A stretch of 64,000 bases of DNA from Fibrobacterota bacterium. GTDB lineage: Bacteria; Fibrobacterota; Fibrobacteria; UBA11236. The stretch spans positions 72,249 to 136,248 of the forward strand of contig JAQBPO010000064.1 of the NCBI GenBank assembly GCA_028287465.1. Direction: 5' to 3'. Of this stretch, positions 1,434 through 64,000 are shown in pieces. Position numbers and translations under genes: made by a program. The first letter of the stretch is position 1. Each line of letters starts with the position of its first letter. The notes under the pieces were generated by a model. That model was not told the DNA's origin. It saw only the letters and a list, made by a program, of their open reading frames with translations, and did not search any database.

Positions 1434-1456
1434 CGGCAAAGCGGTGATGCGCGCCA

Positions 1457-36922: not shown

Positions 36923-37035
36923 ACCGCAACCTTTCCCAAAAAACCAAAGCTTTTAGTCAGATCTTTGTCATATCATAAGGGTGATTGGGGGATTGGCGTC
37001 CCCTGGCCCGCCGCCCGGGTACGCCAGACAATCTT

Positions 37036-38862: not shown

Positions 38863-39006
38863 ATCCAGCCTCCGCCCAAGATCCTAAAACGATTTCCCGC
38901 CTCCGGGACGTATCGTATTGGCGGGGGGATGACGTTCCGGCTACCGCCGGGGCGGCGTCATCAAGATCACGTGGCAAACAACCTGGCTCGCGATTTCCGT
39001 CGTACC

Positions 39007-44102: not shown

Positions 44103-44600
44103 ATGAATCCCAGCCTGGTCTTGGGTATGGTGATGGTCGCAACGACCGTAGGTCTTGCTCCGGCCCAGAATCTGGGATTGGGGACGGGATCGCGCTCGAA
44201 TCCGGCCGAAGATTCCTCCGCAGCCATCGAAGGGCGCCAGGAGCGCCAGGACGAGGCCCCCAACCCGCGCAAGACCCAATTCAACCGCCGCCTGGGTCTG
44301 GCCGCCAGGAAGGCCAGGGTCTTCGATCCCAAGGAATTCGAAGCGCGCGGCCGCGAATTGCAGGGGCAGTACTACGAAATCGGCACGCCGGCGAACCCCA
44401 AGCAGCAAACCGGCCCGAACGCCACCGTAGGCACCATGGCCCTGAATCCTAAATCCGGATCGAAGCAATGGGTATTCTGGGTCGGCGTGGCGGGTGCCGC
44501 GGGTGTTTCCGCGGGAACGGTGGGATACCTCCTGATGAACAAGGCGCATCCGGCCTCGGCGCCGCCCCCCAAACACCTGGTCCTGACGGACGAACCCTGA
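44103..44600 (+). CDS. hypothetical secreted/membrane protein
   Basis: N-terminal hydrophobic MNPSLVLGMVMVATTVGLAPAQ and a C-terminal TM WVFWVGVAGAAGVSAGTVGYLLM. Confidence 0.4.
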   Translation: MNPSLVLGMVMVATTVGLAPAQNLGLGTGSRSNPAEDSSAAIEGRQERQDEAPNPRKTQFNRRLGLAARKARVFDPKEFEARGRELQGQYYEIGTPANPKQQTGPNATVGTMALNPKSGSKQWVFWVGVAGAAGVSAGTVGYLLMNKAHPASAPPPKHLVLTDEP

Positions 44601-44605
44601 ACCGT

Positions 44606-45598
44606 ATGTCCGCCCGCCCCGCATTCCTTGCCTGCCTGGCGATTCCCGCGCTCGCGCTGGGCCTTATGATGGCGGGCTGCCAGACCGCCGAGGTCCCCGA
44701 AGCGGAAACGGTGCTGGACGTCAAGCTGAACGATTCCCTCAGCCGCTACGACCGGGTGGTCGTGCAGATCGTGGATCGGGCGGATACCAACAAGGTGCTC
44801 GCGACCTTGTTCGACGGTCAGCTCCGCTTGCCGGGCAAGGGGATCGACCCGTATCCGCTGGGATCCCTGGCGAAGCAATCCTTCATCGTCAAGGTGACCG
44901 CCTATAAGGCCCTGGGGCAACTGGCCCTGAACACCCTGATTTTCTACGAGGGCGGAACGGCCAAGCCGAGCGTGCTCCATAAGGAAGTGCCTCCCTTGAT
45001 CCCGCACGATTGGCTGACCAAGATCACCCCGTCCCAAGGCGCCTTGTCCCCGGCCTTCGACAAGGACTCCCTCAACTACACCATCAACGTGGCCTCCGGG
45101 GCCGCCCTTACTTTTTCCATGACGCCCTTCTACAACGGGGCCTCGATCGCGTTCGACGGACAATCGCTCGCCGCCGGGACGGCGAGCAAGGCCATCACGG
45201 TCGAAACCGAGCCGGATACCGTCTCCGTTCTGGTCACGGACCTTTCCACCGGCGTCGCCTCCACGCGCACCTACAGCATCATCGTCAAGCCCATAGAGGC
45301 GCCTGGCATCTACCTGGGAAGCCTGGTGCCCAGCGCCGGTACCCTCAATCCTCCCTTCAAGGCCATCACCCAGATCTATTCCCTCAAGCTCCCTCCCGGC
45401 GTGGACACGGTGGCGTTCGTCATCACCCCCGCGGACGCGAGAACCATGACCATGACCGTCAACGACAAGGCGGTCCTCCCGGGCCAGCGTTCCCAGACCT
45501 TCAAAATCCTACCGGGAATTTCCTTCCCGATTCCCATCCAGGTCTACCGCGACGGCAATTCCCGATTCTACCAGGTGACCGTTGACTTGGCGAATTAG
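44606..45598 (+). CDS. lipoprotein with two cadherin-like beta-sandwich domains
   Basis: Lipobox GLMMAGC. ITPSQGALSPAFDKDSLNYTINV and LVPSAGTLNPPFKAITQIYSLKL match the G.LSP.F......Y...V cadherin-like pattern. Confidence 0.5.
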   Translation: MSARPAFLACLAIPALALGLMMAGCQTAEVPEAETVLDVKLNDSLSRYDRVVVQIVDRADTNKVLATLFDGQLRLPGKGIDPYPLGSLAKQSFIVKVTAYKALGQLALNTLIFYEGGTAKPSVLHKEVPPLIPHDWLTKITPSQGALSPAFDKDSLNYTINVASGAALTFSMTPFYNGASIAFDGQSLAAGTASKAITVETEPDTVSVLVTDLSTGVASTRTYSIIVKPIEAPGIYLGSLVPSAGTLNPPFKAITQIYSLKLPPGVDTVAFVITPADARTMTMTVNDKAVLPGQRSQTFKILPGISFPIPIQVYRDGNSRFYQVTVDLAN

Positions 45599-49322: not shown

Positions 49323-51257
49323 TCAGGAGGCTTCGCGGGCCGCGTCGAGGACGGCCCTGACCTTGGCGGCCAGCTGCGCAGGGGAGAACGGCTTCTCCAG
49401 GAACGCATCGGCCGGAACGACGATGCCGCGGTCGGCCAGGCTTTCCAGGGAATGCCCGGAAATGAAAACGGCGCGCAGCCCCGGCTTCAGGGCCTGGAGC
49501 GCTTCCGCCAATTCGTCCCCGCCTTCGCCGCGCAGCATGATGTCCGTGACGACCAGATCCACCTCGTCCGGTCGCTGGGTAACGAGGTCCATGGCTTCCG
49601 CCGAGGATGCGGCCTCGAGCAAGCCGAATCCGTAACGCTCGAGGATGGTCACCAGCATCTCGCGAAGGCTCGGTTCGTCTTCCACGACCAGGATGGTTTC
49701 GCGGTTCGGCCGCGCTCTCCAGGCCGTTTCTCCGGATGAGGGCTCCTCCGGCGCCGTCTGCACGGTCGCGAGCGCCAGCAGAATCCGGAACCGGCTTCCC
49801 CGGCCCGGCCCGCTTTCCACGGAGATCCCGCCGCGGGCCTGGCTGACTATGCCGTAAACGGTGGCCAAGCCCAATCCCGTGCCGCGTCCGCCGCGCTTGG
49901 TGGTGAAGAACGGTTCGAACAGGCATTCCAGGGTTTCCCTGTCCATCCCCGTCCCCGTGTCCTCGATGGTGATCGAGACATGCTCGCCCGTACCGGAAGC
50001 GAGATGGGTGAAGGCCTCGGATCCATCCACATCCGCCAATCGGGTGCTCAGGGTCAGGATGCCGCCCTCGGGCATGGCATCGCGGGCGTTGACGGTGAGG
50101 TTGAGGATCAATTGTTCCAGTTGCCCCGGCTCCAGGCGGACCGCCGATTCACCCGCGTCCAACCGCAGGCGGAACTCGACCCGATCCCCGATCAAGCGTT
50201 GGAGCACGGGAGCCATTTCCGTGATGGCCGCGTCAACGCCCACGGTCCGGGCCTCATCGCCCTCGGAACGGCTGAAGGACATCAGGCTGCGCGTCATGGC
50301 GGCAGCGGTATCCCCCGCCCTGCGGATGGCCTTGAGGCCAGAGGCGATGGGGCCTTCCACGCCGGAAAGGCTCAGCAGATGCTCGCTATAACCGTTGATG
50401 GCGGTGAGCAGGTTGTTGAAATCATGCGCCACGCCCCCGGCCAGGCGGCCCAACGCTTCCATCTTGAGGGATTGCCTGACAGGCTCGGACCGGGAAGGAT
50501 CGCCTTCGACGCCGGATTCCTGCCCGCCTTCGTTATGTTCCATGGAGGCGAGGTACAGGGCCACCGCGGGGGCATCATTGAGCATCGCGCCCTTGACGAA
50601 CACCCGGCACCGCGTGGCCGGTCCATCCGGCCGTTCCAGGCGCGCGGTGAAACGGGATTCCGGGATCTCCCCGGCCGCGGCGTCCAGGGCCTTTTCCAGG
50701 GCGGGCCTGGCGTCTTCCGGGAAGAGCTCGAGGATGGAGGCCTCGGCCAATCCGGCCTCCCCGCGGCCGAGGATTTCCAGGCTCACGGGATTGGCCATGA
50801 TGACGCGGCGGCCGGCCGCCAAAATGATCCCGATGGGCGCCGAATCGAACAGGGCGCGGAAACGCCGAGCCTCCGCCCGGGAACGCAGGACGGCCTGGCG
50901 CAGGGCCTGGGCCAAGGCTCCCCCATCCAATCCGTCCTTGTCCAGGCAGGCTTGGGCCCCTTCGATGATGAGGGTTTCGGCCAGGGCCGGATCGCCTCCG
51001 TTAGTCAAGGCCACCATGGGGGCGCCCGGGAGGATGGCGGCGGCGCGCCGGAATCCTTCGGGACCCTTGGCATCGGGAAGCGAGAGGTCGAAGAGGACCG
51101 CGTGGATGCCTCCTGAGGCGCGCGCTTGCGCGGCCAGGGCGGAGGCTTTGGAAAGCTTGTCCGCATGCACCACGGTAAAACCGGGTTGGGCGGAGAGCAA
51201 TGCCCTGGCGATCCCGCCCCTGCCTTCAATCAACAGAACGCTCAGGTTTTCCGGCAT
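49323..51257 (-). CDS. hybrid histidine kinase with receivers at both ends (REC-PAS-HisKA-HATPase-REC)
   Basis: H-box LKMEALGRLAGGVAHDFNNLLTAINGYSEHLL, nearly identical to the kinase at 27.8-31 kb. C-terminal REC ILVVEDEPSLREM...LVVTDIMLRGEGG. Start placed at MPENLSVLLIEG. Confidence 0.75.
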   Translation of the reverse strand: MPENLSVLLIEGRGGIARALLSAQPGFTVVHADKLSKASALAAQARASGGIHAVLFDLSLPDAKGPEGFRRAAAILPGAPMVALTNGGDPALAETLIIEGAQACLDKDGLDGGALAQALRQAVLRSRAEARRFRALFDSAPIGIILAAGRRVIMANPVSLEILGRGEAGLAEASILELFPEDARPALEKALDAAAGEIPESRFTARLERPDGPATRCRVFVKGAMLNDAPAVALYLASMEHNEGGQESGVEGDPSRSEPVRQSLKMEALGRLAGGVAHDFNNLLTAINGYSEHLLSLSGVEGPIASGLKAIRRAGDTAAAMTRSLMSFSRSEGDEARTVGVDAAITEMAPVLQRLIGDRVEFRLRLDAGESAVRLEPGQLEQLILNLTVNARDAMPEGGILTLSTRLADVDGSEAFTHLASGTGEHVSITIEDTGTGMDRETLECLFEPFFTTKRGGRGTGLGLATVYGIVSQARGGISVESGPGRGSRFRILLALATVQTAPEEPSSGETAWRARPNRETILVVEDEPSLREMLVTILERYGFGLLEAASSAEAMDLVTQRPDEVDLVVTDIMLRGEGGDELAEALQALKPGLRAVFISGHSLESLADRGIVVPADAFLEKPFSPAQLAAKVRAVLDAAREAS

Positions 51258-51465
51258 CGGCCTTCCGCTCCTTGGCAGGCCCGTCCGGCCGACCTTGGGA
51301 TATACGCTTGCAAACCTTACCATAGGCGGAACGGGCGCTTCAACGGGATTGCGGGGTCATCGGGCGCGGAATCGGGTCCGGGAACGCCCGAAAATGGCGT
51401 AACGAGGGCTTGCGGGGACCTCGGGAAAAAGCGATGCGGAGGAGCGGACGGGGCGGGACCCGGTC

Positions 51466-54117
51466 TCAGGGCCAGGGGTGTTTCGGATAGCGGCGCTTAA
51501 GCTCCTTTTTGACCTCGGGATAAGTGTTGATCCAGAAGCTCGACAGGTCCGAGGTCTTCTGGACCGTTCGATAGTTGGGAGCCAGGATATCGTATACGAT
51601 CTCCACCTTGCCCTCGAGGATGGAGGTCCGGCCTTGCATGCCGACGAAATCCCCCAGCCGGGCGGAAAGCTCCGGTGGCGCGTTCTCGAAATAGGTGAGC
51701 TTGCCCATCCGGCCCCCCGCAAGCTTCAGGGAGACCGGCGCGGCCTTGTCCACGAAGGAGGCCAGGGAATCCCCGAGGTACTCCCGTAACGCGCGCGATA
51801 CGGAGGCCGATTCCAGATCCCGCACCGAGGATCGGCCTTCGCAGATCTCATGGTAGATGAGGCGCCAATCCTCCTCGTCCAGCTTGGGCAGGCCGTATTC
51901 CGGGAAATGCTTCGCGGCGAGGCGGATGCGCTGGACCCATTGCTTCGCCTCGTCGTCGAAATTGGGGAGCTCGATTTCGCCGGATACGAGCCGGTCCACC
52001 AGCAGGCGCTCGGACTCTTCCGGGCTGAGCACTCCGTCCTTGAGGGTCTTGCGCTCTAGCGCCAGCCCCCGGAAGAGCAGGTGCTCCTCCTGTGTCACGC
52101 GCCCGCGCGCCTCGTCCCATCCGCCCACCTTGGCCCAGCGGCACTCTCCCGGAAAGGCATCCTCCACCCAGGCGGGCTCGCAGGGAAGCAGCATGGGGAT
52201 GCCCACCTGCCGGTTCTGGTTGGCGCCGCCGGTCTCGTGCAGCTCCAGCGCCAGGATCACGCTTATGTTGGCGGGCACCTGCCCGGATTCGACCACGCCC
52301 TTGCGCCCGTCCGCCAGCAGGAAACTCAGGGACTTGTCCGCGCGCACGGCGATGCGATCCTGGAATGGGACGATCCAGCACCGGGTGGCCGCGGCGCGCA
52401 GCCGATCCTCCTCCTGTTGCGGAGTCAGGCGGTGCGTGGACGGAACGCCGCCCTTGCCCGCCGGAACCGTCCCGGCCCGATCTCCCTGCGGGAGCCCTCC
52501 CACCGCGGGGGCCTTGTCGAGAAGGCGCAACAACTGCTTGTAGGATTCCCGGGTCTCCCGATCGAACCGGCGCGCCTCCACGTCCGTGGCCAGATCGATG
52601 CCCAAGGCGAACAGATCCGCCGGGGCCCCCTTGGCCCTTCGCGTCTGGGATTCCAGGACGGCCGCCATGGCCGCGGCCTGGGGACCCACGCCCGCGCGTT
52701 TCGCGTCGAGCAGGACCCGCGCCAGCACCGGATGGGCCGGGAACCGGACCAGGGTGCGCCCGATGTCCGTGATCCGGCTGCCGCCCGCGGCGGGAACGCC
52801 GTCCGCGGCGGCGACGCCGGCGCCCCCCGTAACGGACGCGCCTCCCCCCTCGGTACCGGGGGCGGTACCCCCTGAGGGCAGGATGGCGCCGATGCGCTCC
52901 AGGGACTTCTCGGCCTTGTCCCACAAGGGCCGGGCGGGAGGCGTGAGCCAGGGGATCAGCATGTCCCCTTCCGTCCCGGAAGCCTTATTGATGCGGCCGA
53001 AGCGATCGGCCAGGGAATGGAGGGAGAGCACCATGTCCGTGGGCTCCACGCGCAGGATTTCCGGATCGAGCGCGGCGGGCATGGCGCGCTCGCGGTCCGC
53101 GCTCCATAGGCGGATGCAGGTTCCCGGCGCCGTGCGGCCGGCGCGGCCCGCCCTCTGGCGGGCGTTCTGCAGGCTGATGGAACCGAGGTAAAGCGTATTC
53201 ATGTCCCTTTGGGTGCTGTACGCGGCGATGCGCGCCTGCCCGGAGTCGATCACCACCGTGATCCCGGGGATGGTCAAAGAGGTCTCCGCCACGTTCGTGG
53301 ACACGATTACGCAGGTCCCGGATTGCGGCGCGCGCAGGGCGCGCTGCTGGGCTTCCATGTCCATGGAGCCGTGCAGTTCGAAAAGGCCGATGCCGTGCTG
53401 GCGGCAAAGCGGATCGAATGCCTCCAGGGTTCGGCGGATCTCGCCTTGGCCGGGCATGAAGATCAGTACGGATCCGGAGAGGCCCTGGGACAGGAGCCGT
53501 TTGAATGCGCGCAGGGCCTGCAGGTTCATGGGCTCCTGGGTCATGGGGGGCTGATGGGATATTTCGACCGGGAAGGTCTCCGCGGCCACCTCGATGAGGG
53601 GGGCGGGCGCCAGGTAAGCCTTGAGGCCTTCCAGTTCCAGGGTCGCGGACATCACCACCATGGCCAGATCCGGCCGCGCGTGGGCACGCAGCCGCTTCAG
53701 CCAGGCCAAGGTGGCGTCCGCCTCCAGGGTGCGTTCGTGGAATTCGTCCAGCAGGACGGTGCCGATGCCTTCCAGGAGAGGGTCGCCCAGCAATTGCTGG
53801 AAGAACACGCCGTAGGTCTGGTAGAGGATGCGCGTATCCTCCTTGGATTTCCCTTCGAAGCGGACCTGGTATCCGACCGTGCCGCCCACCGCCTCGCCCA
53901 TCTCCTCGGCCACGCGCAAGGCCAGGTTGCGGGCCGCGATGCGCCGGGGCTGGAGCACCAGGATCTTCCCGGGCCTGTCCAGCAGGTAACGCGGGACCTG
54001 GGTGGACTTGCCCGTTCCCGGCGGCGCGCACAGGATGAGGACCCGGTCACGGGCGACCGCATCGACGATGGCCTGCCGGTGGGCGAGGATGGGGAGGACG
54101 GGAAGGTTCATGGACAT
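51466..54117 (-). CDS. hrpB: ATP-dependent DEAH-box helicase HrpB with a Gly/Ala-rich insertion
   Basis: Motif I CAPPGTGKSTQVP, motif II LLDEFHER and an HrpB-type C-terminal region. The insertion is GGTAPGTEGGGASVTGGAGVAAADGVPAAGGS. The start is ambiguous between MSMNL at 54117 and MNL at 54111. Confidence 0.75.
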   Translation of the reverse strand: MSMNLPVLPILAHRQAIVDAVARDRVLILCAPPGTGKSTQVPRYLLDRPGKILVLQPRRIAARNLALRVAEEMGEAVGGTVGYQVRFEGKSKEDTRILYQTYGVFFQQLLGDPLLEGIGTVLLDEFHERTLEADATLAWLKRLRAHARPDLAMVVMSATLELEGLKAYLAPAPLIEVAAETFPVEISHQPPMTQEPMNLQALRAFKRLLSQGLSGSVLIFMPGQGEIRRTLEAFDPLCRQHGIGLFELHGSMDMEAQQRALRAPQSGTCVIVSTNVAETSLTIPGITVVIDSGQARIAAYSTQRDMNTLYLGSISLQNARQRAGRAGRTAPGTCIRLWSADRERAMPAALDPEILRVEPTDMVLSLHSLADRFGRINKASGTEGDMLIPWLTPPARPLWDKAEKSLERIGAILPSGGTAPGTEGGGASVTGGAGVAAADGVPAAGGSRITDIGRTLVRFPAHPVLARVLLDAKRAGVGPQAAAMAAVLESQTRRAKGAPADLFALGIDLATDVEARRFDRETRESYKQLLRLLDKAPAVGGLPQGDRAGTVPAGKGGVPSTHRLTPQQEEDRLRAAATRCWIVPFQDRIAVRADKSLSFLLADGRKGVVESGQVPANISVILALELHETGGANQNRQVGIPMLLPCEPAWVEDAFPGECRWAKVGGWDEARGRVTQEEHLLFRGLALERKTLKDGVLSPEESERLLVDRLVSGEIELPNFDDEAKQWVQRIRLAAKHFPEYGLPKLDEEDWRLIYHEICEGRSSVRDLESASVSRALREYLGDSLASFVDKAAPVSLKLAGGRMGKLTYFENAPPELSARLGDFVGMQGRTSILEGKVEIVYDILAPNYRTVQKTSDLSSFWINTYPEVKKELKRRYPKHPWP

Positions 54118-54326
54118 GCAGTCTAAGGTCTTAAAAGTGGGGAGGCATGCCAAGGTTGAAGGACCGCTCGGGGTTTTACTTCAACTTTACCCGCATACCG
54201 CGCGTTCCCGGGCCGCAAGAGGGCGCCGGACAAGGCCTTACCTACCGTCGTATGGTTGTATTCGGGCCCGCCATATTGCGATAATGAAGCCGAAGCAAAG
54301 CACCCGCGCCAACCTGGAAAGAAATC

Positions 54327-55103
54327 GTGGATATAACAACAATCATGGGCCCGGTCGTCGCCATCGGCATGATCCTGCTCGGGATGATCCTGGAAGGCGG
54401 GCATGTCCAGTCCCTGATCCAGCTGACGGCCTTCATGATCGTGGGAGGCGGCACGGCCGGAGCCATCCTCGCCAGCTTCCCCCTGGACCATACCGTCCAG
54501 GCCTTGAAGGCGCTCAAGATCTGCATCATCCCCCCCAAGTCGGATCACGAAAAGGTCATCGCCGAGCTGACCGAACTCTGCCAGTTCGCGCGCAAGAACG
54601 GCATCATGGCCCTCGAAGGCAAGGCCAAGGCGCACCCGGACGCGTTCACGCGCAAGGGATTGTCGCTCGTGGTGGACGGCATCGATCCCGCCATGCTCCT
54701 GAGCATCATGGAAACCGAGCTGGAGACTTTCGAAGAGCACGCCAAGATCCCCATCCCCGTCATGGAAGGCGGCGGCGCCTACGCGCCCACCGTCGGCATC
54801 ATCGGCGCCGTGCTCGGCCTTATCCACGTGATGTCCAATCTGGACGATCCTTCCAAGCTGGGAGGCGGCATCGCCACCGCCTTCGTGGCCACGATCTACG
54901 GCTTGACCATCGCGAACGTCATCGCCCTGCCCCTCGCCTCCAAATACAAGATCCGCGTGGCCCAGATGGTCCACGAGAAGAACATGATCCTGCAGGGCCT
55001 GGTGGCCCTCCAGAACGGCGAGAACCCCCATTTCCTGAGCCAACGCCTCCGGGCCTTCCTCCCCGGCGGCGGGCATGGGGCCAAAGAGGGCGCGGCGCAC
55101 TGA
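54327..55103 (+). CDS. motA: flagellar-motor-type stator protein MotA/PomA (MotA/TolQ/ExbB proton-channel family)
   Basis: 258 aa with 4 TM. N-terminus MDITTIMGPVVAIGMILLGMILEGG. C-terminal TM pair GAYAPTVGIIGAVLGLIHVM...ATAFVATIYGLTIANVIALPLA. Confidence 0.7.
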   Translation: MDITTIMGPVVAIGMILLGMILEGGHVQSLIQLTAFMIVGGGTAGAILASFPLDHTVQALKALKICIIPPKSDHEKVIAELTELCQFARKNGIMALEGKAKAHPDAFTRKGLSLVVDGIDPAMLLSIMETELETFEEHAKIPIPVMEGGGAYAPTVGIIGAVLGLIHVMSNLDDPSKLGGGIATAFVATIYGLTIANVIALPLASKYKIRVAQMVHEKNMILQGLVALQNGENPHFLSQRLRAFLPGGGHGAKEGAAH

Positions 55104-55130
55104 GCGCGCCCGTCCCGAACATTCAAGCAC

Positions 55131-55931
55131 ATGGCCAGGAAGCACAAACACCCGGAACACGTCAACCACGAACGTTGGCTCGTCTCCTACGCGGATTTCA
55201 TCACCCTTCTCTTCGCCACCTTCACGGCGCTCTACGCGCTCAGCAAGGCGGACGCGAACAAGGCCAAGGTCGTGGCCGATGGCCTGCGCGAGGCCTTCGG
55301 CGTCAGCGGCGCCAAGATGGTCAATATGGAGGCCCTGGACGTCAACGGCATCCCATCGGACAAATCCCGCCTTCCCAAAGGCGAAGGCAACGAGAACAAG
55401 ACCGAGCCTTCCACCAAGGAGGCCGGCAAGCAGGAGTTCGAGGAAATCAAGAAGGCGGTCGAGGAGTTCCTCATGACCAAGGGCATGCTCAACAAGGTCT
55501 CAATCGATCAGCAGGAACGTGGCCTGGTGGTCAGCCTGAAGGAAGCGGGATTCTTCGAATCGGGGAACGCGGACGTGAAGGACGGTGCCCTGCCCATTCT
55601 GGCGGAGCTGGCCGAGAAGATCAAGCAGTACCGGAATCCCGTCCGCATCGAGGGCCATACCGACAATGTCCCCATGAGCTCGCGGACCTATCCCACCAAT
55701 TGGGAGCTGTCCTCCGCGCGCGCGACCAACATGGCCCGGGTGCTTACGGACCGGTTCAAGGTGCCGCCGGGCAAGATGTCCGCCACCGGCTACGGGGAGT
55801 TCCGGCCCAAGACCTCCAACGACACCCCCGCGGGCCGCGCCCGCAACCGCCGCGTCGATATCGTGATCCTGTCCGGCAAGGCCGAGGAATCCGAGCCCGA
55901 GACAATCATGGACGATAATGGGGGTGTCTGA
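55131..55931 (+). CDS. motB: MotB-like stator protein with an OmpA-like peptidoglycan-binding domain
   Basis: N-terminal WLVSYADFITLLFATF TM. OmpA-like RIEGHTDNVP...ELSSARATNMARVL...RNRRVDIVIL. Confidence 0.7.
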   Translation: MARKHKHPEHVNHERWLVSYADFITLLFATFTALYALSKADANKAKVVADGLREAFGVSGAKMVNMEALDVNGIPSDKSRLPKGEGNENKTEPSTKEAGKQEFEEIKKAVEEFLMTKGMLNKVSIDQQERGLVVSLKEAGFFESGNADVKDGALPILAELAEKIKQYRNPVRIEGHTDNVPMSSRTYPTNWELSSARATNMARVLTDRFKVPPGKMSATGYGEFRPKTSNDTPAGRARNRRVDIVILSGKAEESEPETIMDDNGGV

Positions 55932-57432
55932 CGGGCAACGCTTTCCCCGGGACCCCCAGCGCGCGTAGCTTCTGCGCCGCCGCGATCTGACCGCGCAGGA
56001 TTTCCAGGGAGACGGGTTTGGTGGTGTAGGCGTCCATGCCGCAGGCGAGGCATTTCTCCTTCGTCCCGGGCATGGCGTTGGCGGTCATGGCCGCGATCCA
56101 GGCCCTGCCTCCCGCTTTCGCCTCCAGCTCGCGGATGGCCGCGGTCGCCGAAAAGCCGTCCAGCAACGGCATCTGGCAGTCCATCAGGATGAGATCGAAG
56201 TTGTTGCGTTCGCACGCTTCGACGCCCTCCCTGCCGTTGACGGCCACCGCCGCCTCGAGGCCGAGGCTTTCGAGGTAGCCCTTCACCACCATCCGATTGA
56301 TCGCATTGTCCTCCACCACCAGGATCCGCAGGGAGGCAGGATCCCCTTTTCCGTCGTTACGGGCCGTAGCGCCGTCCACGACGGTGCGCGAGTCCGCGCC
56401 CTCCCCTTCCGCGGAAGCCTCCTCCGCTCCCGGCAATAAAGCCTGGAGGTCGGCCTGGAACGTCTCCGCACGCGCATGCAGGTCGGCCAGCCTTCGCACC
56501 GAGGAACCCATCATGGCGATATACCTGCGCTGGGTGTCGTCCAGGACGGTCCTGCCCAGCAATCCCGCCATGCGCGTGAGCCCGTGCAAGGGAATGCGCA
56601 TCTTCCGGTACAATCCCGTCAGGCGGAGCCGTTGCCCTTCGATCTCGACGGCGGCCCGTTCCAGCCGCTTCCGATCCGTTACGTCCCGGCCGAACATGGC
56701 CATGCCCGTGACGGCTTTTCCGGAAGTGATCGGATGGAAAGCGATTTCCAGGGTTCCGCGTCCACCCGCCCACTCCAAATCGTGCTCCTGGACGAACCGA
56801 TCGCGGTTGCGGATGCGGCGGGCGGCGTCTTCCCATTGGCTTTGCATTCCCGGGGACAGCCTTTCCAGCAGGCAGGAACCTTCCACCATGGGCTGGCCGG
56901 TCATTTTCATGCACAGCAGGCTCGCGGCCGAATTGAAGACCAGGATGTTGAATCCCAGATCCATGGACCAGATGGCATCCGTCGTGTTTTCGATCAGACC
57001 GTGCAGGTTGGCCTGATCCCGGCGGATGCGCGCCTCGGCCGCCCGCAAGGCCGCGGTCTCGCGGAAGGCATTGAGGGTGCGCATCACCATGGGGATGAAC
57101 CTGGACATGTTGGACTTGAGCACGTAATCCGCGGCGCCGTTCTTGAGCGATTCGATGGCGAGTTCCTCGCCGAGCATGCCCGAGAGGAAGATGAAGGGGA
57201 CGTTAGGGCATTCGCGCCTGCAGTGGGAAAGGGCCTTGAGGCCGTCGCCGCCGGGAACGTTGTGATCGGAAAGGATGAGGTCGAAGGGCTGGTCGTGGAG
57301 GGCGCTTTCGAAAGCGTCCCAGTCCGCCGCGCGGGTGAGGCGGAACCTCATGCCCTGGGCTTTGAGCAATTCCTCCACCATGTCGGCGAAGAAGGGATCG
57401 TCTTCCAGATGTAGGATGCGCAATTCTTGCAT
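55906..57432 (-). CDS. multidomain response-regulator-type phosphorelay protein (REC-PAS-HPt-like-REC)
   Basis: Start placed at MQELRILHLEDDPFF, which is in frame within the artefactually long ORF 55906..58731. REC1 is ...DLILSDHNVPGGDG. A PAS block follows. HPt-like IPLHGLTRMAGLLG. REC2 is ILVVEDNAINR...LILMDCQMPLLDG...TTKP. Confidence 0.55.
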   Translation of the reverse strand: MQELRILHLEDDPFFADMVEELLKAQGMRFRLTRAADWDAFESALHDQPFDLILSDHNVPGGDGLKALSHCRRECPNVPFIFLSGMLGEELAIESLKNGAADYVLKSNMSRFIPMVMRTLNAFRETAALRAAEARIRRDQANLHGLIENTTDAIWSMDLGFNILVFNSAASLLCMKMTGQPMVEGSCLLERLSPGMQSQWEDAARRIRNRDRFVQEHDLEWAGGRGTLEIAFHPITSGKAVTGMAMFGRDVTDRKRLERAAVEIEGQRLRLTGLYRKMRIPLHGLTRMAGLLGRTVLDDTQRRYIAMMGSSVRRLADLHARAETFQADLQALLPGAEEASAEGEGADSRTVVDGATARNDGKGDPASLRILVVEDNAINRMVVKGYLESLGLEAAVAVNGREGVEACERNNFDLILMDCQMPLLDGFSATAAIRELEAKAGGRAWIAAMTANAMPGTKEKCLACGMDAYTTKPVSLEILRGQIAAAQKLRALGVPGKALPVRHPHYRP

Positions 57433-57638
57433 GACGCCGGGCCGTTCGTTTGCAAAGTATAAGCACAGGGACGGACCGCGAACGGGCGGATCCACCCCTG
57501 CATTACGCACAAAATGTACGCGCGTTCCGGAGGCCCGGCAGGACGGGAAATCGGGGTCTTCGGGTAAAATTCCGGGAAAGTTTCCGGGTGCCGGCGGGAT
57601 TCCGGAACGGACGGCCCCGTGCCGGACTCCCGGGCCGC

Positions 57639-60600
57639 CTAAGGCAGTATTTCCAGGCGCGCGTTTTGATTCGCGAGGGCGCGCAGGGCGGGACCGGGGA
57701 GCTCCGAGGATTCCCCCGCATGCCCCCGGCCTTCCCATAGGAGCCTTCCCTGCCAGGTCCAGACGCGGGCCCTGCCGGGCCGGTTCCACAACAGGCGTCC
57801 CCCGTTCATGGCGATCGCGCCCATGGACCCGCCGCGGCCGGCCAGCCGCGCGGACAACCGGGAAATCGCCACCTGGGTGGCCGCGCAGGAAACGGCGCCG
57901 CCATTGTCCAGGCACAGGGTGACTTCCAGGATGCCGTCCTGCGCGGGACGGCTCAATACGAGGGAGTCGGAGGATTGGGCCGTATCGGCGATGTTTACGG
58001 ACAGGAACCATTGGTAGCGGAAGGCCGGCGAGTAGGGTGAGGCCTTGAGCTCGATCGCATTGGTCAGCTCCGGCCTGAGAGCGAGAGGCGCGTCCCCGTT
58101 CCATTTGGGTTTGGCGGGCAAAATGAACTTCGGATCCGGAATCGAGTTGCGGACGCGGACCGTCACGTCCTTGGATTCCTCGTTCGTTCCGTAGACCGCG
58201 GTGAACCGGTAGACCATCACCGTATCCCTGGACACGCGCGGCGCGGTGATGATGAGGGATTCCACTTCCGGATCCAGGATTTTCGGCGCGGGGCCGGAGA
58301 CGACGGACCAGGAGAAGCCTTGCGAGCAGGCGGCCTTGCCTTTCAGGAGGGCGGGCTGGCCCTCGTCCACCGTCAGGGTTTCCGGCAAGGCCTGGAAAAC
58401 GCTGTCGCAGACGGTCACGGTGAGCTTGGCATCGCGGCTGGTATCGGCCCCATACGCATTGCTGACGATGACGGTGAAGATCGCGCCGTCGTCGGAGAGC
58501 TTGGCCGTGTCCAGGGCGAAGGTGGAGTCGGTGGAGAGGATGGTCGCGCTCCCCCTGCGCCGCCATTTGAAGGCCACGGGTTGGGCGCCGATGGCCCCCA
58601 CGGTGAATACGGCTTTCTTCCCCTTGCCCACGAAGATGTCCGCGGGTTCCCGGGTGATAAGGGCCCCTTGCACCACGGTGAGCTTGGCTTCCCGGGTGGC
58701 CGCCTGGCCGTAGGCGTTGATCACGGTGCATGAATAGAGGGACGCGTTATCGCCCATAACGGTAGCTCCCAGGGCGAGGGTGGAATCCCGGGAGACCACG
58801 GTGGTATCCCCTTTCCTGCGCCATTGATACTCAAGGGCGCCGCTACCGGCGGCCCCGACGCTGAAGGAAGCCTTCTGTCCGGCCACGACGGCCGTGTCCC
58901 TGGGTTCGCGGGTCACTACGGCCGGCCGGTTCACTTTCAGGGCCGCATTGAAGGAGGTATCGCTGCCATAGGAATTGGCGACGATGCAGAAGTACGACGC
59001 GCCGCTGTCCGCCGGGGCGACTGAGGCCAAGGCCAGCACGGAATCCCCCGCGAGGAACCCGGGCGTCCCCGCCTTTTGCCACTGGTATCCCAAGGGACCG
59101 GAGCCGATCGCGCGCACCCTGAACGCGGCGGGTTTACCGGCGAGCACGGAAGTATCCTGCGGCTCCAGGGTGATGACCGGGATGACGCCTACGGTAAGCT
59201 TGGCCTCGCGCGTCAATGCCTGCCCGTAATCGTTGATCACGGTGCATTGGAAAAGGGCTCCGCTATCGCTCAACGCGGGCAAGGCCAGGACGTATTCGGC
59301 GGCCGTGGAAATCACCGCCGCATCCCCTTTGCGGCGCCATTCGTACTTGAGGGTGCCGCTTCCCGCGGCCGTAACCGTGAAGCGCGCCTCGCGGCCCGTC
59401 GCCACCTTAACGTCCAGGGGCTGCACGGTTATGGTCGGGATGGTGTTGACCGTCAGGACGGCTTCGGGCGAGGTGTCCGTGCCGTAAGGATTGGAAACGA
59501 TGCAATACCACGAGGTGCCGTTCTGGGAGGCCAGGACCGGATTGAAGGTCAAGGTCGATCCGGAAGCGACGGTGGCGGTATCGCCTTTCCTCTTCCATTT
59601 ATAGGCGAGGGGAGCGCTTCCCTTGGCCGAAACGGTGAAGGTGGCCACGGAGCCGGCCAAGAAGGATGCGCTTACGGGCCCCGCGGTGATCTTGGCGGGA
59701 TCGTTCACGTTGAGCTTCGCGTCTCCGGATTCGGTGGCGCCGTTCGCATTGGTGACGGCGCAATAGTAGAGCGCCCCGCTGTCGGAAGCCGCGGCCGAAG
59801 CGATGGTGAAGACGGCGTCGGTTGAAAGGACCGTCGCGTCCGGGCGTTTACGCCAGGCAAAGGCCAAGGTGGGCGCGCCCGTTGCGGCCACGGTGAACTC
59901 CGCCTTCGCCCCGGTCGAAACCGTAACGTCCTTGGGTTGGACGGTGATGGAAGGAGGGGCGAAAACCCAGCGGGAGTTGCCGGAACCGTTTGTGCAGTTG
60001 GACGCGGCCTTCCCGTCCTGGGCGCCGGTTACCGCGCTCTTGGCGATGGCCGCGAAATCCGCGTCCAGGGTCCCGCCGGCATGGATGGTCCAGGCCGAGC
60101 CGGGATTGAGGTTGAGCAGGTTGCCGGACTGCCCCGTCAGGGCGATGTTGCCGTCCGCGCCCAGGTCCCGGCCGCCCAGGTTCGCGAAGGTGGACGCGTT
60201 TCCGTTCGTAACCGTGAGGTTACCGGAGACGTTCACGTTGTTGCCGGCCAGGTTCAGGGTTCCCGCCGATTGGGCCAGGGATTTCCCGACCAGGGGCGCC
60301 CCCAGGCTGAGGGTTCCGGTTCCGGGATGCCGTACGTTGCCGATGGACCCGCCGGTGACGCTCAAGGTCTGGCTCGCCGGGGAGGCCGCGGCCATATCCA
60401 GGTTGGAATTGTCCGCGGAGCCGGAATTCTGGAGGGACAGGGTCACGTTCCCCTTGGCCGTCCAGGTACCGTTCCCCATCAGCAATTGCTGGGTGGGCGT
60501 TCCCGCCGATCCGTTGGCCGCCCGGAGGATGTCCCCGTCCGCGGCGACATTGGTGTTGTTGGCCCGGAAATCCAGGATACCCTGCAATCCCGAGGATCCC

Positions 60601-62072
60601 AGTTCATCCCGCAGGATGAGGGCGCCCTTGACCTGGAGGGTTCCGGGCGCCGTGGTGATCCGGGCCGGGAAGGTGGACCCGATCGCCCAAAGGTACAGGT
60701 TGGGAAAGGCCGCGTTCCCGGGCGTGAAGACCAGATTCTTGCCGGCGCCGGCGGTGCTTTGGCTCCGGATCTGGACATTGCCCGTCGCGGGCATGGCGGT
60801 GACGCCGGAGAAATTCGCATCGCCCTTTACGATCAGGGTATCCCCGGTGCCCAATGCCCGGAAAGCGCCGCCGCTGGCGGAGAGTCCGGCGAACTCATTG
60901 GTCCGGCTGCCCAGGTCGAACATACCGCCGGTCATGGTCAGGACCCCGGCCACCAAGGGCCGGTTGGTAATCTGGACCGTACCGTTCCCGGATTTGGATA
61001 TCGCCGGATGGATCGCGCCCGGCAGCGGGGAGAACAATTGCGTCGCCGAGGCCGAATTGAAGGCCAGGGTGCCGGTACCGGCATTGAGGGTGGCGGTCGT
61101 CCCGAAGTCGGCGTTTCCGGAAAGGGTCAGGGTGGAGGTCCCGAAGGAGAAGGCGCCGGTGTAGCCGTTCATGTCCAGGCTTTGCGCCGAAAGGTTGGCC
61201 GTCAGCAGGGCATTGGATTGGGCCGTGCTTGTGATGCCGCTGAAGGACATGTCCATATTGGCTGCGGTGATGTTCCCGTTCGCCTGGAAGTCGTCGAAGA
61301 CGACCGTGGTCGAAACCCCAAGATTATGGGAGGTTGCGAAAAGGCCGATCTGGGAATTGGCCGCCGCGCTCTGGGGCGAGCCGAATCCCAGAAGGGTCCA
61401 GGGAGCGTTCTGGGATGTCTTATAATACCCGTAGAAGACTCCGCCCTTCCTCGCGGCCCGGAGCCAGACGGGAAAGACCGGGACCAACGGAGCGACGCCT
61501 GGCCCGCCCGGGCTTTCGAACTCGCCTTGGGTACCGGTGGAATCGAACTGGATCTTGATGCCGTTCTGCGGGGTTACGACCACGGCGAAGCATCCACCGG
61601 CCGTCGGGTTGCCGAATTCGTCGTATATCAGGATGCCGGCCTTGGCCCATTCGTAGGAATTGCTCTGGGAGACCACCTGCACGGAAACGTCGAAGTTACC
61701 CGTGATGTCATCGCGCCAGACGGCCGTATACTGGTTGTCGGCGAACCAGATATCGTTACCCCTGCCGGTCAGGGTGAGCTTGTCGGCGGCGGCGGTCAGG
61801 CTGAAGGAACCGGTGGTCCCGTCATTGTCATTGTCGCGGAACTTCCAATTGGCATTGAGCGCATCGCTGGTGAAGTCGTCGTCAAAGCCGGACTTGGGCC
61901 AGGCGCCCCCGCCGTTACTGTATTGGGACCAGTTCCCGCTTTTTTGGACCTCGCCACCGCCGTTCAGCAGGTGCACGGAGGGATTCCAGAAGAAATTCTC
62001 GGCCCGCGCCGCGCCGCCCAGGACGAGGGCGAACAGGATCAGGCGCGAAAGGACGCGGCCCTTGGATCCCAT
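57639..62072 (-). CDS. giant secreted adhesin: concanavalin-like N-terminal domain, beta-helical passenger-type repeats, 6 tandem Ig (I-set-like) domains, and the shared C-terminal module plus tail
   Basis: Signal peptide MGSKGRVLSRLILFALVLGGAARA. Beta-helix repeats are of the GTGTLAFNSASA / GTLNLAGNNVNVSGNLTV type. Six 86-aa repeats with F.V.A.G..PL.Y.W.(R/K)KG...............SD.G.Y.C.V.N.G...S..A.L.V. The C-terminus matches the DUF2341-LamG proteins. Confidence 0.65.
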   Translation of the reverse strand: MGSKGRVLSRLILFALVLGGAARAENFFWNPSVHLLNGGGEVQKSGNWSQYSNGGGAWPKSGFDDDFTSDALNANWKFRDNDNDGTTGSFSLTAAADKLTLTGRGNDIWFADNQYTAVWRDDITGNFDVSVQVVSQSNSYEWAKAGILIYDEFGNPTAGGCFAVVVTPQNGIKIQFDSTGTQGEFESPGGPGVAPLVPVFPVWLRAARKGGVFYGYYKTSQNAPWTLLGFGSPQSAAANSQIGLFATSHNLGVSTTVVFDDFQANGNITAANMDMSFSGITSTAQSNALLTANLSAQSLDMNGYTGAFSFGTSTLTLSGNADFGTTATLNAGTGTLAFNSASATQLFSPLPGAIHPAISKSGNGTVQITNRPLVAGVLTMTGGMFDLGSRTNEFAGLSASGGAFRALGTGDTLIVKGDANFSGVTAMPATGNVQIRSQSTAGAGKNLVFTPGNAAFPNLYLWAIGSTFPARITTAPGTLQVKGALILRDELGSSGLQGILDFRANNTNVAADGDILRAANGSAGTPTQQLLMGNGTWTAKGNVTLSLQNSGSADNSNLDMAAASPASQTLSVTGGSIGNVRHPGTGTLSLGAPLVGKSLAQSAGTLNLAGNNVNVSGNLTVTNGNASTFANLGGRDLGADGNIALTGQSGNLLNLNPGSAWTIHAGGTLDADFAAIAKSAVTGAQDGKAASNCTNGSGNSRWVFAPPSITVQPKDVTVSTGAKAEFTVAATGAPTLAFAWRKRPDATVLSTDAVFTIASAAASDSGALYYCAVTNANGATESGDAKLNVNDPAKITAGPVSASFLAGSVATFTVSAKGSAPLAYKWKRKGDTATVASGSTLTFNPVLASQNGTSWYCIVSNPYGTDTSPEAVLTVNTIPTITVQPLDVKVATGREARFTVTAAGSGTLKYEWRRKGDAAVISTAAEYVLALPALSDSGALFQCTVINDYGQALTREAKLTVGVIPVITLEPQDTSVLAGKPAAFRVRAIGSGPLGYQWQKAGTPGFLAGDSVLALASVAPADSGASYFCIVANSYGSDTSFNAALKVNRPAVVTREPRDTAVVAGQKASFSVGAAGSGALEYQWRRKGDTTVVSRDSTLALGATVMGDNASLYSCTVINAYGQAATREAKLTVVQGALITREPADIFVGKGKKAVFTVGAIGAQPVAFKWRRRGSATILSTDSTFALDTAKLSDDGAIFTVIVSNAYGADTSRDAKLTVTVCDSVFQALPETLTVDEGQPALLKGKAACSQGFSWSVVSGPAPKILDPEVESLIITAPRVSRDTVMVYRFTAVYGTNEESKDVTVRVRNSIPDPKFILPAKPKWNGDAPLALRPELTNAIELKASPYSPAFRYQWFLSVNIADTAQSSDSLVLSRPAQDGILEVTLCLDNGGAVSCAATQVAISRLSARLAGRGGSMGAIAMNGGRLLWNRPGRARVWTWQGRLLWEGRGHAGESSELPGPALRALANQNARLEILP
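58517..60062 (-). repeat. six diverged tandem coding repeats of about 258 bp (Ig-like domains) inside the giant adhesin gene
   Basis: Periodic protein repeat seen in the translation. Boundaries are approximate (about +-30 nt). Confidence 0.6.
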
Positions 62073-62390
62073 GATATGATTATGGACAAACCGGAAAACC
62101 ACATGAACGAACATGCCACCACTCCAAATCCCCCTCGCTCAAGTCTTCTCCGCTGGGCGGGCCTAGTCCGAAGGCGCTTTGGATCCGCTCAGGCCCGAGA
62201 ACCGCGTCTCCCATTCCCGGGGAGGCCGCAATCCACGCATCCGCACCCCGTGTCCCCCAACCACTAACCGCGGGATCCGGAGCGAATGCGCCGCCAAATA
62301 ATAGTTATGGTATGGTTGGAGCGTATCGATCAGGCTGGATGAAAATTTGCCCCCGGATGGAACGAAAACCTAAAATCCTATATTAGCGGA

Positions 62391-63353
62391 GTGCCCGTTT
62401 TGCCGAAATTACCGTCCGTCATGTTGTTTCTCGCCGCCTGTTTCTGGGGAGTCTGCATCCCCATCATGAAGGCCTTGGGCACGGAACAGGCCATCCTGGC
62501 CCCCGAGGCGGGGTCCCTGGGCGGTTCCGCGGCCTCCTTATGCGCCCGCTTCGGCATCGCAGCCCTGTTCGTCCTGGCCTGGTCGCGCCGATCCCCGATG
62601 GGAATCAAGCCTGCGGAATGGGGGCACGGGGCCATTCTCGGAGGGTTCACCGCCGTCAGCATGTTCCTCCAGGTGGACGGCCTTAACTATACCAATGCCT
62701 CCACGGCCGGGTTCCTCATCGCCCTTTATTCCGTGCTCATACCCACCTTCACCTGGCTCGCGGGCAAACGCCGGATGACGCCGGTCCTGTTCCTGTGTTG
62801 CATGCTGGTGCTGGCGGGCATGGCGACCCTCACCGGCTTCGACCCGCGCTCCTTCCGCCTGGGGCGCGGGGAATGGGAGAACCTGGGCGCGGCCTGCCTG
62901 TTCGCGGGGCAGATCCTATGGGTGGACCGGGTGCCTTATGGCCGTGTCGATTCCGGCCGCCTCACCTTCGTCCTCTGCGCGTCGGTTTCCCTCGCCTGCC
63001 TGGCCGCCCTGGCCTTCCTGCCCGGCGGCGTTCCGGCCCTGATCCACGCGCATGCCTCAACCCGGGCCCTGGGGCTCACCCTGTTCCTGGCCCTCCTGGG
63101 AACGGCCGCGCCGTTCCTGCTCATGAACGGGTTCCAATCCAAGGTGGGACCGGTCGCGGCCGGGTTCATCTATTGCGTCGAACCGCTCACGGCGGCCCTG
63201 GGCGCGTTCTTCCTGCCGGAACTCCTGGTCCGCAGCCCGGATCTCTATGCGAACGAAGCCGTGACGGTGAAATTGGCCCTGGGCGGGCTGATGATCCTCG
63301 CGGCCAACCTGCTGCTGCTCCGCGATCGCTCCGGCACCACGCTCCCGGCGTAA
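62391..63353 (+). CDS. DMT-superfamily (EamA-like) transporter, 10 TM
   Basis: Two EamA-like halves, hydrophobic throughout, 320 aa. Confidence 0.55.
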   Translation: MPVLPKLPSVMLFLAACFWGVCIPIMKALGTEQAILAPEAGSLGGSAASLCARFGIAALFVLAWSRRSPMGIKPAEWGHGAILGGFTAVSMFLQVDGLNYTNASTAGFLIALYSVLIPTFTWLAGKRRMTPVLFLCCMLVLAGMATLTGFDPRSFRLGRGEWENLGAACLFAGQILWVDRVPYGRVDSGRLTFVLCASVSLACLAALAFLPGGVPALIHAHASTRALGLTLFLALLGTAAPFLLMNGFQSKVGPVAAGFIYCVEPLTAALGAFFLPELLVRSPDLYANEAVTVKLALGGLMILAANLLLLRDRSGTTLPA

Positions 63354-63421
63354 CCTTCCGATTACCTTGGCCCTGATCGGGTCGACGGGCGCCATGGGGC
63401 GTCCACCAACCCCGGAAGGGC

Positions 63422-64000
63422 CTAGCGGCCCGTTTTGACCGCGAGGAAATCCAGGCGCGCAGCCCCCATGCGCAGGGAGCGCTCCGCGCCCGCGGGCAAT
63501 TGCGCCGATGAACCGGGAGCGCCCCAGGTCTGCCACAGGATCCTGCCGCGCCAGTCCATGACCCGCGCCAGCCCGGGCCTGTTCCATCCGAGCCGGTTCC
63601 CGTCAAGCCAGACCGGACCCGAATGCGTCCTGCCCAGGAGCAGGGACAGGGAAATGCGCTTGACCTCCACCACGGCCTTGGAGCAGGACGGCGCGCCGCC
63701 ATTGTCCACGCACAGGGAGATCTCGATGTTGCCGTCCTCCTGCGCCTCATGCAGCACCAGGGAATCCCCCGCTACGCTGGAATCCGCGATGTAGGGATTG
63801 ACCGCCCACAGGTAACGCAGGGGATACTTGGGGAACTTCGCGAGCTCGGCCGCGTTCGCGATCTTGGGGCGGATGACCTTCTTGCCTTCGCCGTTCCAGG
63901 ACGGCAGGACGGGCAAGGCGACCGAAGGATCGGGAATGGTGTCCTTCACCTTGACGGTCACGTTCTTGGACTCCCAGTTGCCGCCGAACAGGGCCGAGAA
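63422..64000 (-). CDS. 3' part of a secreted surface protein carrying the same C-terminal module and sorting-type tail as the giant adhesin; 5' end lies beyond the window
   Basis: The frame stays open to nt 64000. ...VTVKVKDTIPDPSVALPVLPSWNGEGK...NIEISLCVDNGGAPSCSKAV...LGWNRPGLARVMDWRGRILW is parallel to the C-terminus of 57639..62072. Confidence 0.6.
   Translation of the reverse strand, partial: FSALFGGNWESKNVTVKVKDTIPDPSVALPVLPSWNGEGKKVIRPKIANAAELAKFPKYPLRYLWAVNPYIADSSVAGDSLVLHEAQEDGNIEISLCVDNGGAPSCSKAVVEVKRISLSLLLGRTHSGPVWLDGNRLGWNRPGLARVMDWRGRILWQTWGAPGSSAQLPAGAERSLRMGAARLDFLAVKTGR

Follow-up and report, generated by a model that had tools for sequence, protein, structure and literature searches.

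A large modular protein of uncultured Fibrobacteria, probably exported, with a ConA-like head, a beta-helix, six long-diverged Ig domains and an orphan basic C-terminal domain

The longest open reading frame (ORF) in a 64,000-nucleotide (nt) stretch of DNA from an uncultured Fibrobacteria bacterium (contig JAQBPO010000064.1 of GenBank assembly GCA_028287465.1, positions 72,249 to 136,248 of the forward strand; hereafter the window) encodes a giant protein with internal repeats. This locus raises the question of what such a protein is for, how it could be held at the cell surface and whether its repeats make the gene unstable. An earlier reading of the DNA (the original prediction) had described a 1,477-amino-acid (aa) adhesin, the largest gene in the window, with a signal peptide, a concanavalin A (ConA)-like fold, a beta-helix, six immunoglobulin (Ig) repeats and a shared C-terminal module. 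Profile hidden Markov models (HMMs) and structure prediction agree with that order of domains, and the ORF is both the longest in the window and uninterrupted. We are highly confident in this architecture. Our preferred reading, to which we give a probability of roughly 0.6, is that the product is a modular, Sec-exported carbohydrate-binding or attachment protein that is located on, or extends from, the surface; for its function and mechanism in detail, our confidence is slightly better than even. The parts of the gene, in the direction of translation and with structures predicted by AlphaFold2 (AF2) and scored by its per-residue confidence (pLDDT), are these:

57639..62114, minus strand: whole gene (intact ORF; identity to JWP91_3171; GGAG ribosome-binding site; MFxHVV N-terminus)
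62001..62114, minus strand: putative extended Sec signal peptide of ~38 aa (n-region MFVHVVFRFVHNHIMGSKGRVLSR, h-region LILFALVLGGAA, cleavage site between ARA and EN)
61881..62000, minus strand: conserved segment opening the mature protein, FFWNPS...NWS...WPKS (homologue alignment; AF2 pLDDT 85-92)
61278..61880, minus strand: ConA-like beta-sandwich of the DUF1349 / GH43 C-terminal type (AF2 model, fold searches)
59961..61277, minus strand: beta-helix of ~440 aa, rich in Gly/Asn/Thr/Ser/Ala (AF2 model, fold searches)
58413..59960, minus strand: six tandem Ig_3/I-set-type domains (Pfam, 258-nt period, in-register alignment, PDB matches)
59703-59960, 59445-59702, 59187-59444, 58929-59186, 58671-58928 and 58413-58670, minus strand: Ig repeats 1 to 6, in that order, each of 258 nt / 86 aa
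58149..58412, minus strand: module domain D1, a PKD/Ig-like sandwich with a conserved Cys pair (AF2 pLDDT >90; profile search)
57861..58148, minus strand: module domain D2, an Ig-like sandwich with invariant IPDP, W, LCLDNGG and C (alignment, AF2)
57642..57860, minus strand: terminal basic domain (the tail) of ~70 aa, isoelectric point (pI) 12, predicted as a small beta-sandwich plus one short helix (AF2; low-confidence linker before it)

The gene is a single unbroken ORF on the minus strand, encoding 1491 aa plus a stop codon when counted from the first ATG, at 62114. The original prediction had the end of the gene right and the ORF intact, and had begun it at the second ATG (62072), which gives the 1477-aa reading, 57639..62072. 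A GGAG ribosome-binding site, unchanged across seven orthologous loci, stands 7 nt (TGGTGGC) 5′ of the ATG at 62114. In addition, an N-terminal MFxHVV(F/L) motif (62073..62114, minus strand) is kept in most close orthologues (P0002-P0011, P0018, P0020), and its codons vary at the third position (GTG/GTT/GTC), which points to constraint on the protein and not on the DNA. The ATG at 62072 is preceded by no GGAG-like ribosome-binding site and opens no conserved N-terminus. Because of the conserved GGAG and the conserved MFxHVV N-terminus, we take 62114 to be the better-supported and likely start. A more distant clade (P0013-15, P0019) is without the MFxHVV motif, and there an 11-nt deletion puts another ATG at the ribosome-binding site.

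The 1491-aa product is 100% identical to the 1491-aa NCBI entry 'MAG: hypothetical protein JWP91_3171 [Fibrobacteres bacterium]', which belongs to a metagenome-assembled genome (MAG); the sequence is already public, and uncharacterised. It is probably a protein of ~150 kDa that an uncultured Fibrobacteria bacterium exports by a Sec-type route. The signal peptide likely consists of an n-region of ~24 aa and the hydrophobic core LILFALVLGGAA, with cleavage between ARA and EN, and the orthologues have the same layout, with a variable linker of 10-50 aa between MFxHVV(F/L) and the hydrophobic core. In the segment that opens the mature protein, W5, N6, P7, N23 and W24 are invariant among 24 homologues. 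Full-length relatives number twenty-odd, all of them from Fibrobacteres/Fibrobacteria MAGs or unnamed metagenome contigs, and the nearest, among ~15 billion proteins, is 61% identical.

The head and the helix were modelled together with AF2 (aa 25-704 of the 1477-aa reading, with 24 homologues as input). The model is confident (pLDDT 91.2, predicted template modelling score 0.86) and has two parts, a ConA-like sandwich packed against a beta-helix. In fold searches the former is a jelly-roll beta-sandwich superposable on members of the ConA-like family (Foldseek finds 3o12 at 3.8e-6). The best matches are DUF1349 proteins (3mep, ECA2234; 3o12, yeast YJL217W) and the non-catalytic C-terminal domain of GH43 beta-xylosidases (PF17851), at sequence identities of 16-20%. 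The Pfam family GH43_C2 falls below threshold (20.6 bits against a cut-off of 22.7) with profile positions 2-201 of 203 aligned, and distant relatives are annotated PF07081 (DUF1349). Whereas the GH43 domain is part of an enzyme, the ConA-like domain here is the N-terminal module of a giant exported protein. The best fold matches of the helix are non-enzymatic passengers of type V secretion, namely Bordetella Vag8 (7akv), E. coli EtpA (8vba) and Haemophilus HxuA (4rt6), which have the same kind of beta-helix; unlike in those passengers, the helix here has a ConA-like head on its N-terminal side and eight Ig-like domains after it. PDB sequence searches with the ConA domain, the helix and the C-terminal module returned noise only.

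The Ig repeats (residues 705-1220 of the 1477-aa reading) had been predicted to be I-set-like, and this is what we find. Pfam Ig_3 (PF13927) scores 138.6 bits (cut-off 30; E = 1e-40) and I-set (PF07679) 127.7 bits (cut-off 23.7; E = 1.8e-37), each in five stretches, with a single repeat reaching 43.9 bits for I-set; Pfam gives no fn3 or Big_2 match for the repeats. The best PDB sequence matches are the phage Ig-like tail proteins 9ncf_S (6e-33) and 9c2d_S (1e-29), followed by Robo, LRIG1, titin and contactins. These phage domains, and those of immunoglobulin domain-containing proteins of Verrucomicrobia and Bacteroidota, match the same Pfam families above cut-off, and tandem Ig_3/I-set arrays are common in large bacterial surface proteins. 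The present array differs from other bacterial and phage arrays in being short, in having each position conserved across species and in lacking the canonical B-F disulfide. When the repeats are read against the I-set pattern (by sequence, not from a structure), the B-strand position is Val (e.g. AEFTVAATG), and all repeats but the sixth keep the F-strand Cys. The B-F disulfide is missing from many bacterial Ig domains, and its absence does not exclude an Ig fold.

Behind the array lie D1 (1221-1308 in the 1477-aa reading), D2 (1309-1404) and the tail. AF2 models the last 257 aa as three small beta-sandwiches, with a pLDDT of 88. The Cys pairs are conserved in both D1 and D2 (C2 and C29 of D1 are invariant in a six-sequence subset), which fits an extracytoplasmic protein. 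The strands of the tail fall within positions 200-256 of the module model, after a linker (189-195) with pLDDT <50, and the predicted fold packs six strands and a helix into ~60 aa. A Foldseek search with the three-domain model found generic tandem-Ig matches only, which says nothing about the tail by itself. The module had been described as shared with other genes, and tblastn indeed finds it in three more genes of the window. The full module including the tail, however, is common only to the first of these, as the other two have D1 and D2 only:

63422..64000, minus strand: paralogue cut by the window end, with D2 and the same basic tail (tblastn 47% identity over the module; tail aligns)
36985..38862 and 38929..40833, plus strand: DUF2341 + Laminin_G_3 (LamG) proteins, with D1-D2 and then a short basic peptide

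Equivalents of the cut gene, of ~1050 aa, are found in three of the orthologous loci (L002, L004, L005) and contain Ig domains in two of the three. The DUF2341-LamG proteins and their relatives (P0079-P0129) have a basic end of 40-50 aa with a D/N-x-x-G-R motif (RDASGR, NAAGRR, RDLMGR), and homologues elsewhere have the folded basic tail instead (P0142, P0154, P0178, P0184). In further relatives with the DUF2341-LamG-D1-D2 arrangement, the tail position is held by a FlgD_ig-like domain (P0156 and P0171; 24-27 bits, cut-off 27) or gives a weak Por_Secre_tail match (P0182; 16.8 bits, cut-off 27). The C-terminal elements behind D1-D2 look interchangeable.

Searching 1.84 billion representative proteins with a profile of the module gave 1932 proteins at E <= 1e-3, of which 160 reach E <= 1e-30. 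One group consists of giant proteins in which as many as 42 stretches match, mostly over D1, so D1 is a widespread PKD-like repeat. Another comprises proteins of ~600 aa with D1-D2, of which those scanned are DUF2341-LamG proteins, and a third carries the full D1-D2-tail at the C-terminus behind varied N-terminal parts. The D1+D2 pair is likewise found near the C-terminus of many proteins that differ in their N-terminal parts. Among the sequences gathered, an HMM of the tail matches 51 proteins, always at the C-terminal end or within ~25 aa of it, and the full-length tail proteins whose N-termini were inspected have signal-peptide-like starts. In species-representative genomes (a set of which the source MAG is not part), a single module sequence found no loci, and a six-sequence module alignment found 10, nine of them named Fibrobacterota, Fibrobacteria or Fibrobacteres and one 'uncultured bacterium'.

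The position and basicity of the tail bring us to the question of how the protein could be held at the surface. The tail may act as a signal that sorts or anchors the protein by its C-terminus, plausibly as a divergent C-terminal domain (CTD) of the type IX secretion system (T9SS), comparable to the 'basic terminal domain' (BTD) of Fibrobacter succinogenes enzymes; this is the leading mechanism, as yet unproven, and we make no claim of membership. F. succinogenes, which is in the same phylum as our source organism, has basic terminal domains that were proposed as T9SS signals and are reported to be missing from the mature proteins (PMC6851124; also PMC3079729). The BTD/Fpm-1 type is defined as a highly basic C-terminal domain with a pI above 9 (PMC6851124), and the pI of our tail is 12.0. 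Like T9SS cargo with a C-terminal sorting domain, including BTD/Fpm-1 proteins, our protein combines a signal-peptide-like N-terminus with a small folded, extremely basic C-terminal domain that follows a flexible linker. The replacement of the tail in relatives by FlgD_ig-like and Por_Secre_tail-like domains also speaks for T9SS, with matches that lie at or below the Pfam cut-offs. If the tail is such a signal, it would keep the C-terminus at the outer membrane; the helix and the eight Ig-like domains would build a stalk tens of nanometres long, and a lectin-like head at its far end could bind a glycan. PA14, LamG and cadherin-like domains mark other putative surface proteins of lectin type in the window.

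Several findings weigh against this picture. The tail, the module and 21 diverse tails gave no match to PF18962, TIGR04183 or TIGR04131 even at E = 10. When a profile of the 51 tails was compared by hhalign with seven CTD-type domains (PF18962 is a precomputed annotation in four of them, and the other three match Pfam only weakly), the probability was 7%, with the expected 'vRIw..GRlL' strand aligned. In contrast to known T9SS cargo, the tail of our protein resembles no known CTD at the HMM or profile-profile level. Among the ~30 larger ORFs of the window that were scanned, none was seen to encode T9SS machinery (PorV, PorU, SprA/Sov, PorKLMN). At the other end of the protein, the ConA-like domain is nearest to families of unknown or accessory function (DUF1349 and the GH43 C-terminal domain), so a sugar ligand is only putative, and the name adhesin, while reasonable, is a putative one drawn from the architecture. 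Pfam, NCBIfam and the PDB hold no match to the tail, with a PDB profile search returning noise only, and NCBIfam gave no sorting-signal family for the whole protein or its pieces, just weak PKD-region matches to M36 peptidases. We also considered a PEP-CTERM or sortase-type signal and rejected it, as no hydrophobic C-terminal helix was seen on reading the tail. The tail together with D1-D2 could represent a kind of C-terminal sorting or anchoring signal that has so far gone unrecognised, either a T9SS CTD variant invisible to current HMMs or a signal for another export route; this is a tentative proposal, to which we give somewhat less than even odds. If it is true, the module would mark a lineage-specific surface proteome of uncultured soil and freshwater Fibrobacteria, and a passenger-like beta-helical adhesin would be exported without type V machinery.

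With the same architecture, the tail could be a non-covalent anchor on anionic envelope polymers (lipopolysaccharide, capsule or extracellular DNA), and the protein could reach the outer membrane by another export route. The pI of the tail and its lack of detectable sequence homology to T9SS CTDs would fit such an anchor, as would the two DUF2341-LamG paralogues (36985..38862 and 38929..40833), whose short basic peptide after D1-D2 looks more like a charge patch than a folded signal. We nonetheless consider an anchor of this kind unlikely, given that AF2 predicts the tail to be folded, that 51 proteins carry it at their C-terminal end or near it, that FlgD_ig-like or Por_Secre_tail-like domains (weak Pfam matches) hold its position in relatives, and that the basic domains of F. 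succinogenes are reported missing from mature proteins (PMC6851124). The helix alone would invite a different view, in which we would be dealing with a classical adhesin secreted by a type V route, as an autotransporter or as a TpsA protein of two-partner secretion (TPS). Besides the likeness to Vag8, EtpA and HxuA, the extended N-terminus with its conserved motif loosely resembles type V extended signal peptides, and one homologue bears the JGI name 'autotransporter-associated beta strand protein'. However, the C-terminus is predicted to consist of beta-sandwiches and not of a translocator barrel, with no PF03797 match; Pfam finds no autotransporter, TPS (Haemagg_act, PF05860), ESPR or PATR family; and no TpsB/Omp85 partner transporter is among the genes called beside the orthologues at six loci. 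With neither barrel nor TPS domain, we excluded type V secretion, which we regard as the least probable of the alternatives. It is also doubtful, more so than the polymer anchor, that the protein is a secreted polysaccharide-degrading enzyme, with a beta-helix of the pectate-lyase/GH28 kind or a ConA domain of the GH16/PL7 kind, and Ig domains as linkers. The best matches of the helix are non-enzymatic passengers and not lyases, those of the ConA-like domain are DUF1349 and a non-catalytic domain, and no CAZy-type Pfam family reaches threshold. GH16-type catalysis was rejected on reading the ConA-like domain, in which no ExDxxE motif was seen.

The remaining alternative concerns the repeats themselves, which the original prediction had taken to be recombination-prone at the DNA level, so that unequal homologous recombination would shift the repeat number between strains or within populations and the array would be a contingency region. 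Part of what it had described holds well. There are six repeats of 86 aa, and a repeat search of the DNA finds six copies at five successive spacings of exactly 258 nt. This exact period speaks for recombination, along with the variation in copy number among family members (2, 3, 4, 6 or 7 repeats). The array lies at 58413..59960, however, and not at 58517..60062, and the repeats are not well conserved, as their pairwise identities, in register, are 34-50% in aa and 47-61% in nt. The longest exact run common to repeats is 17 nt, between repeats 3 and 5. Exact direct repeats elsewhere in the window, in other pieces of 4.4 kb, measure 12-27 nt, so the gene is no unusual recombination substrate. 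In E. coli, RecA-dependent recombination needs ~23-27 identical bp and falls steeply with divergence; a divergence as large as that of these repeats suppresses it. Tandem Repeats Finder (57000..62500, minimum score 30) reports no array.

The comparison with orthologues leads to the same result. Repeats 1, 2, 4, 5 and 6 are each closest to the same-numbered repeat of six-repeat orthologues (50-69%, against 43-50% for the closest sibling repeat within the query), in proteins that are 56-61% identical overall to our query. Because five of the six repeats are positionally orthologous, the array is older than these lineages and has not been homogenised by concerted evolution. The exception is repeat 3 (59187..59444), which resembles repeat 5 (58671..58928) both within the protein (50% aa, 61% nt; the most similar pair of the array) and in the orthologues. 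This likeness counts in favour of exchange between repeats and hints at a single duplication or partial conversion that took place long ago in this lineage. The closest relatives are 61% identical, and strain-level variation is not visible in such data. For this allele, the idea of a recombination-prone array is largely refuted by these comparisons, and we consider it improbable. As for the claim that the repeat number could vary, the range across the wider family, 2-7, bears it out in the sense that whole domains are gained and lost on a long evolutionary timescale. In our preferred reading, the Ig array is a structural spacer of long-diverged domains, neither a recombination hot spot nor a phase-variation device. 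More generally, exact DNA periodicity alone does not imply recombinational instability, and the repeats here are ancient and diverged. One relative (P0020, 950 aa, on a 1.76-Mb ENA contig) reads as expected as far as Ig repeat 1, head and helix included, and then loses the frame where repeat 2 begins and stops early; a frameshifted pseudogene or an assembly error within the repeat array could explain this.

Large modular surface proteins are the main way in which uncultured bacteria touch their substrates, and the present gene provides a confidently modelled example from environmental Fibrobacteria. Most of it is a familiar kind of surface protein, and the orphan basic C-terminal domain is the only element with potential for novelty. 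A beta-helix of the type V passenger type is used here outside type V secretion, and proteins whose heads have little in common share the conserved module of D1-D2 and basic tail. Should the tail prove to be a sorting signal, the surface proteome of this lineage would become predictable from sequence.

The gene lies in a neighbourhood that includes the following features:

62391..63353, plus strand: EamA, divergent and upstream of the adhesin gene
62115..62390, minus strand: intergenic region or leader of 276 nt, shared with the divergent EamA gene (conserved blocks, 4-7 orthologous loci aligned)
55906..57432, minus strand: REC-PAS-REC response-regulator-type protein of 508 aa (Pfam Response_reg 4.3e-38 in two stretches; PAS_4 weak)
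55131..55931, plus strand: motB
54327..55103, plus strand: motA
51466..54153, minus strand: HrpB
49323..51323, minus strand: hybrid kinase

As originally predicted, a response-regulator gene follows the adhesin gene on the same strand; it has two receiver domains and begins after a gap of 206 nt. The gene order is kept across orthologous loci (L001-L006) whose adhesins are 40-61% identical to the query. A divergent EamA transporter gene lies upstream in all six, and four of them (L001, L002, L003 and L006) have a receiver-domain gene, of the REC-PAS(-REC) kind, downstream on the same strand. At L005 a histidine kinase gene and two receiver genes lie directly downstream, and L004 has no regulator. 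The convergent motA-motB pair is present in 5/6 loci, HrpB in four and the hybrid histidine kinase in two, where several of the fetched stretches stop short of the HrpB and hybrid-kinase positions.

The leader (in the other loci, L001 9739-10000, L002 9700-10000, L004 3724-4000 and L005 3820-4102) contains blocks that are kept across diverged genomes: ATAACTATTATTTG, GCGGATC...CGGAC and GAGCGAGGGGG-TTTGGAG. In each genome, the distal motif and the block by the ribosome-binding site are essentially confined to this locus. A hairpin is predicted in the leader, with some compensatory changes (5 sequences only). A search of 57300..64000 against Rfam at E <= 1 gave no match, and the conserved leader thus contains no known riboswitch (e.g. 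for cyclic di-GMP). The leader could be a promoter plus a structured 5′ untranslated region. An AT-rich 13-mer, AATATAGGATTTT (62372..62384 in the window, 9745-9757 in L001), is invariant in every locus and lies 7 nt from the annotated EamA start, where it is probably a translation-initiation or promoter element of EamA.

Elsewhere in the window are four more genes for putative surface or lectin-type proteins, at 13094..14851 (plus strand), 16574..18361 (minus strand), 44468..45598 (plus strand) and 24215..26161 (plus strand). Their domains are PA14 (twice), cadherin-like and CarboxypepD_reg/fn3-like, and tblastn finds the shared module in none of the four. To our knowledge, cultured Fibrobacter are not motile. 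Within 123..3490 are genes for a CheA-like protein with Hpt and HATPase domains and for the flagellar-assembly protein FapA; together with motAB (54327..55931), they suggest a motile, chemotactic member of the Fibrobacterota.

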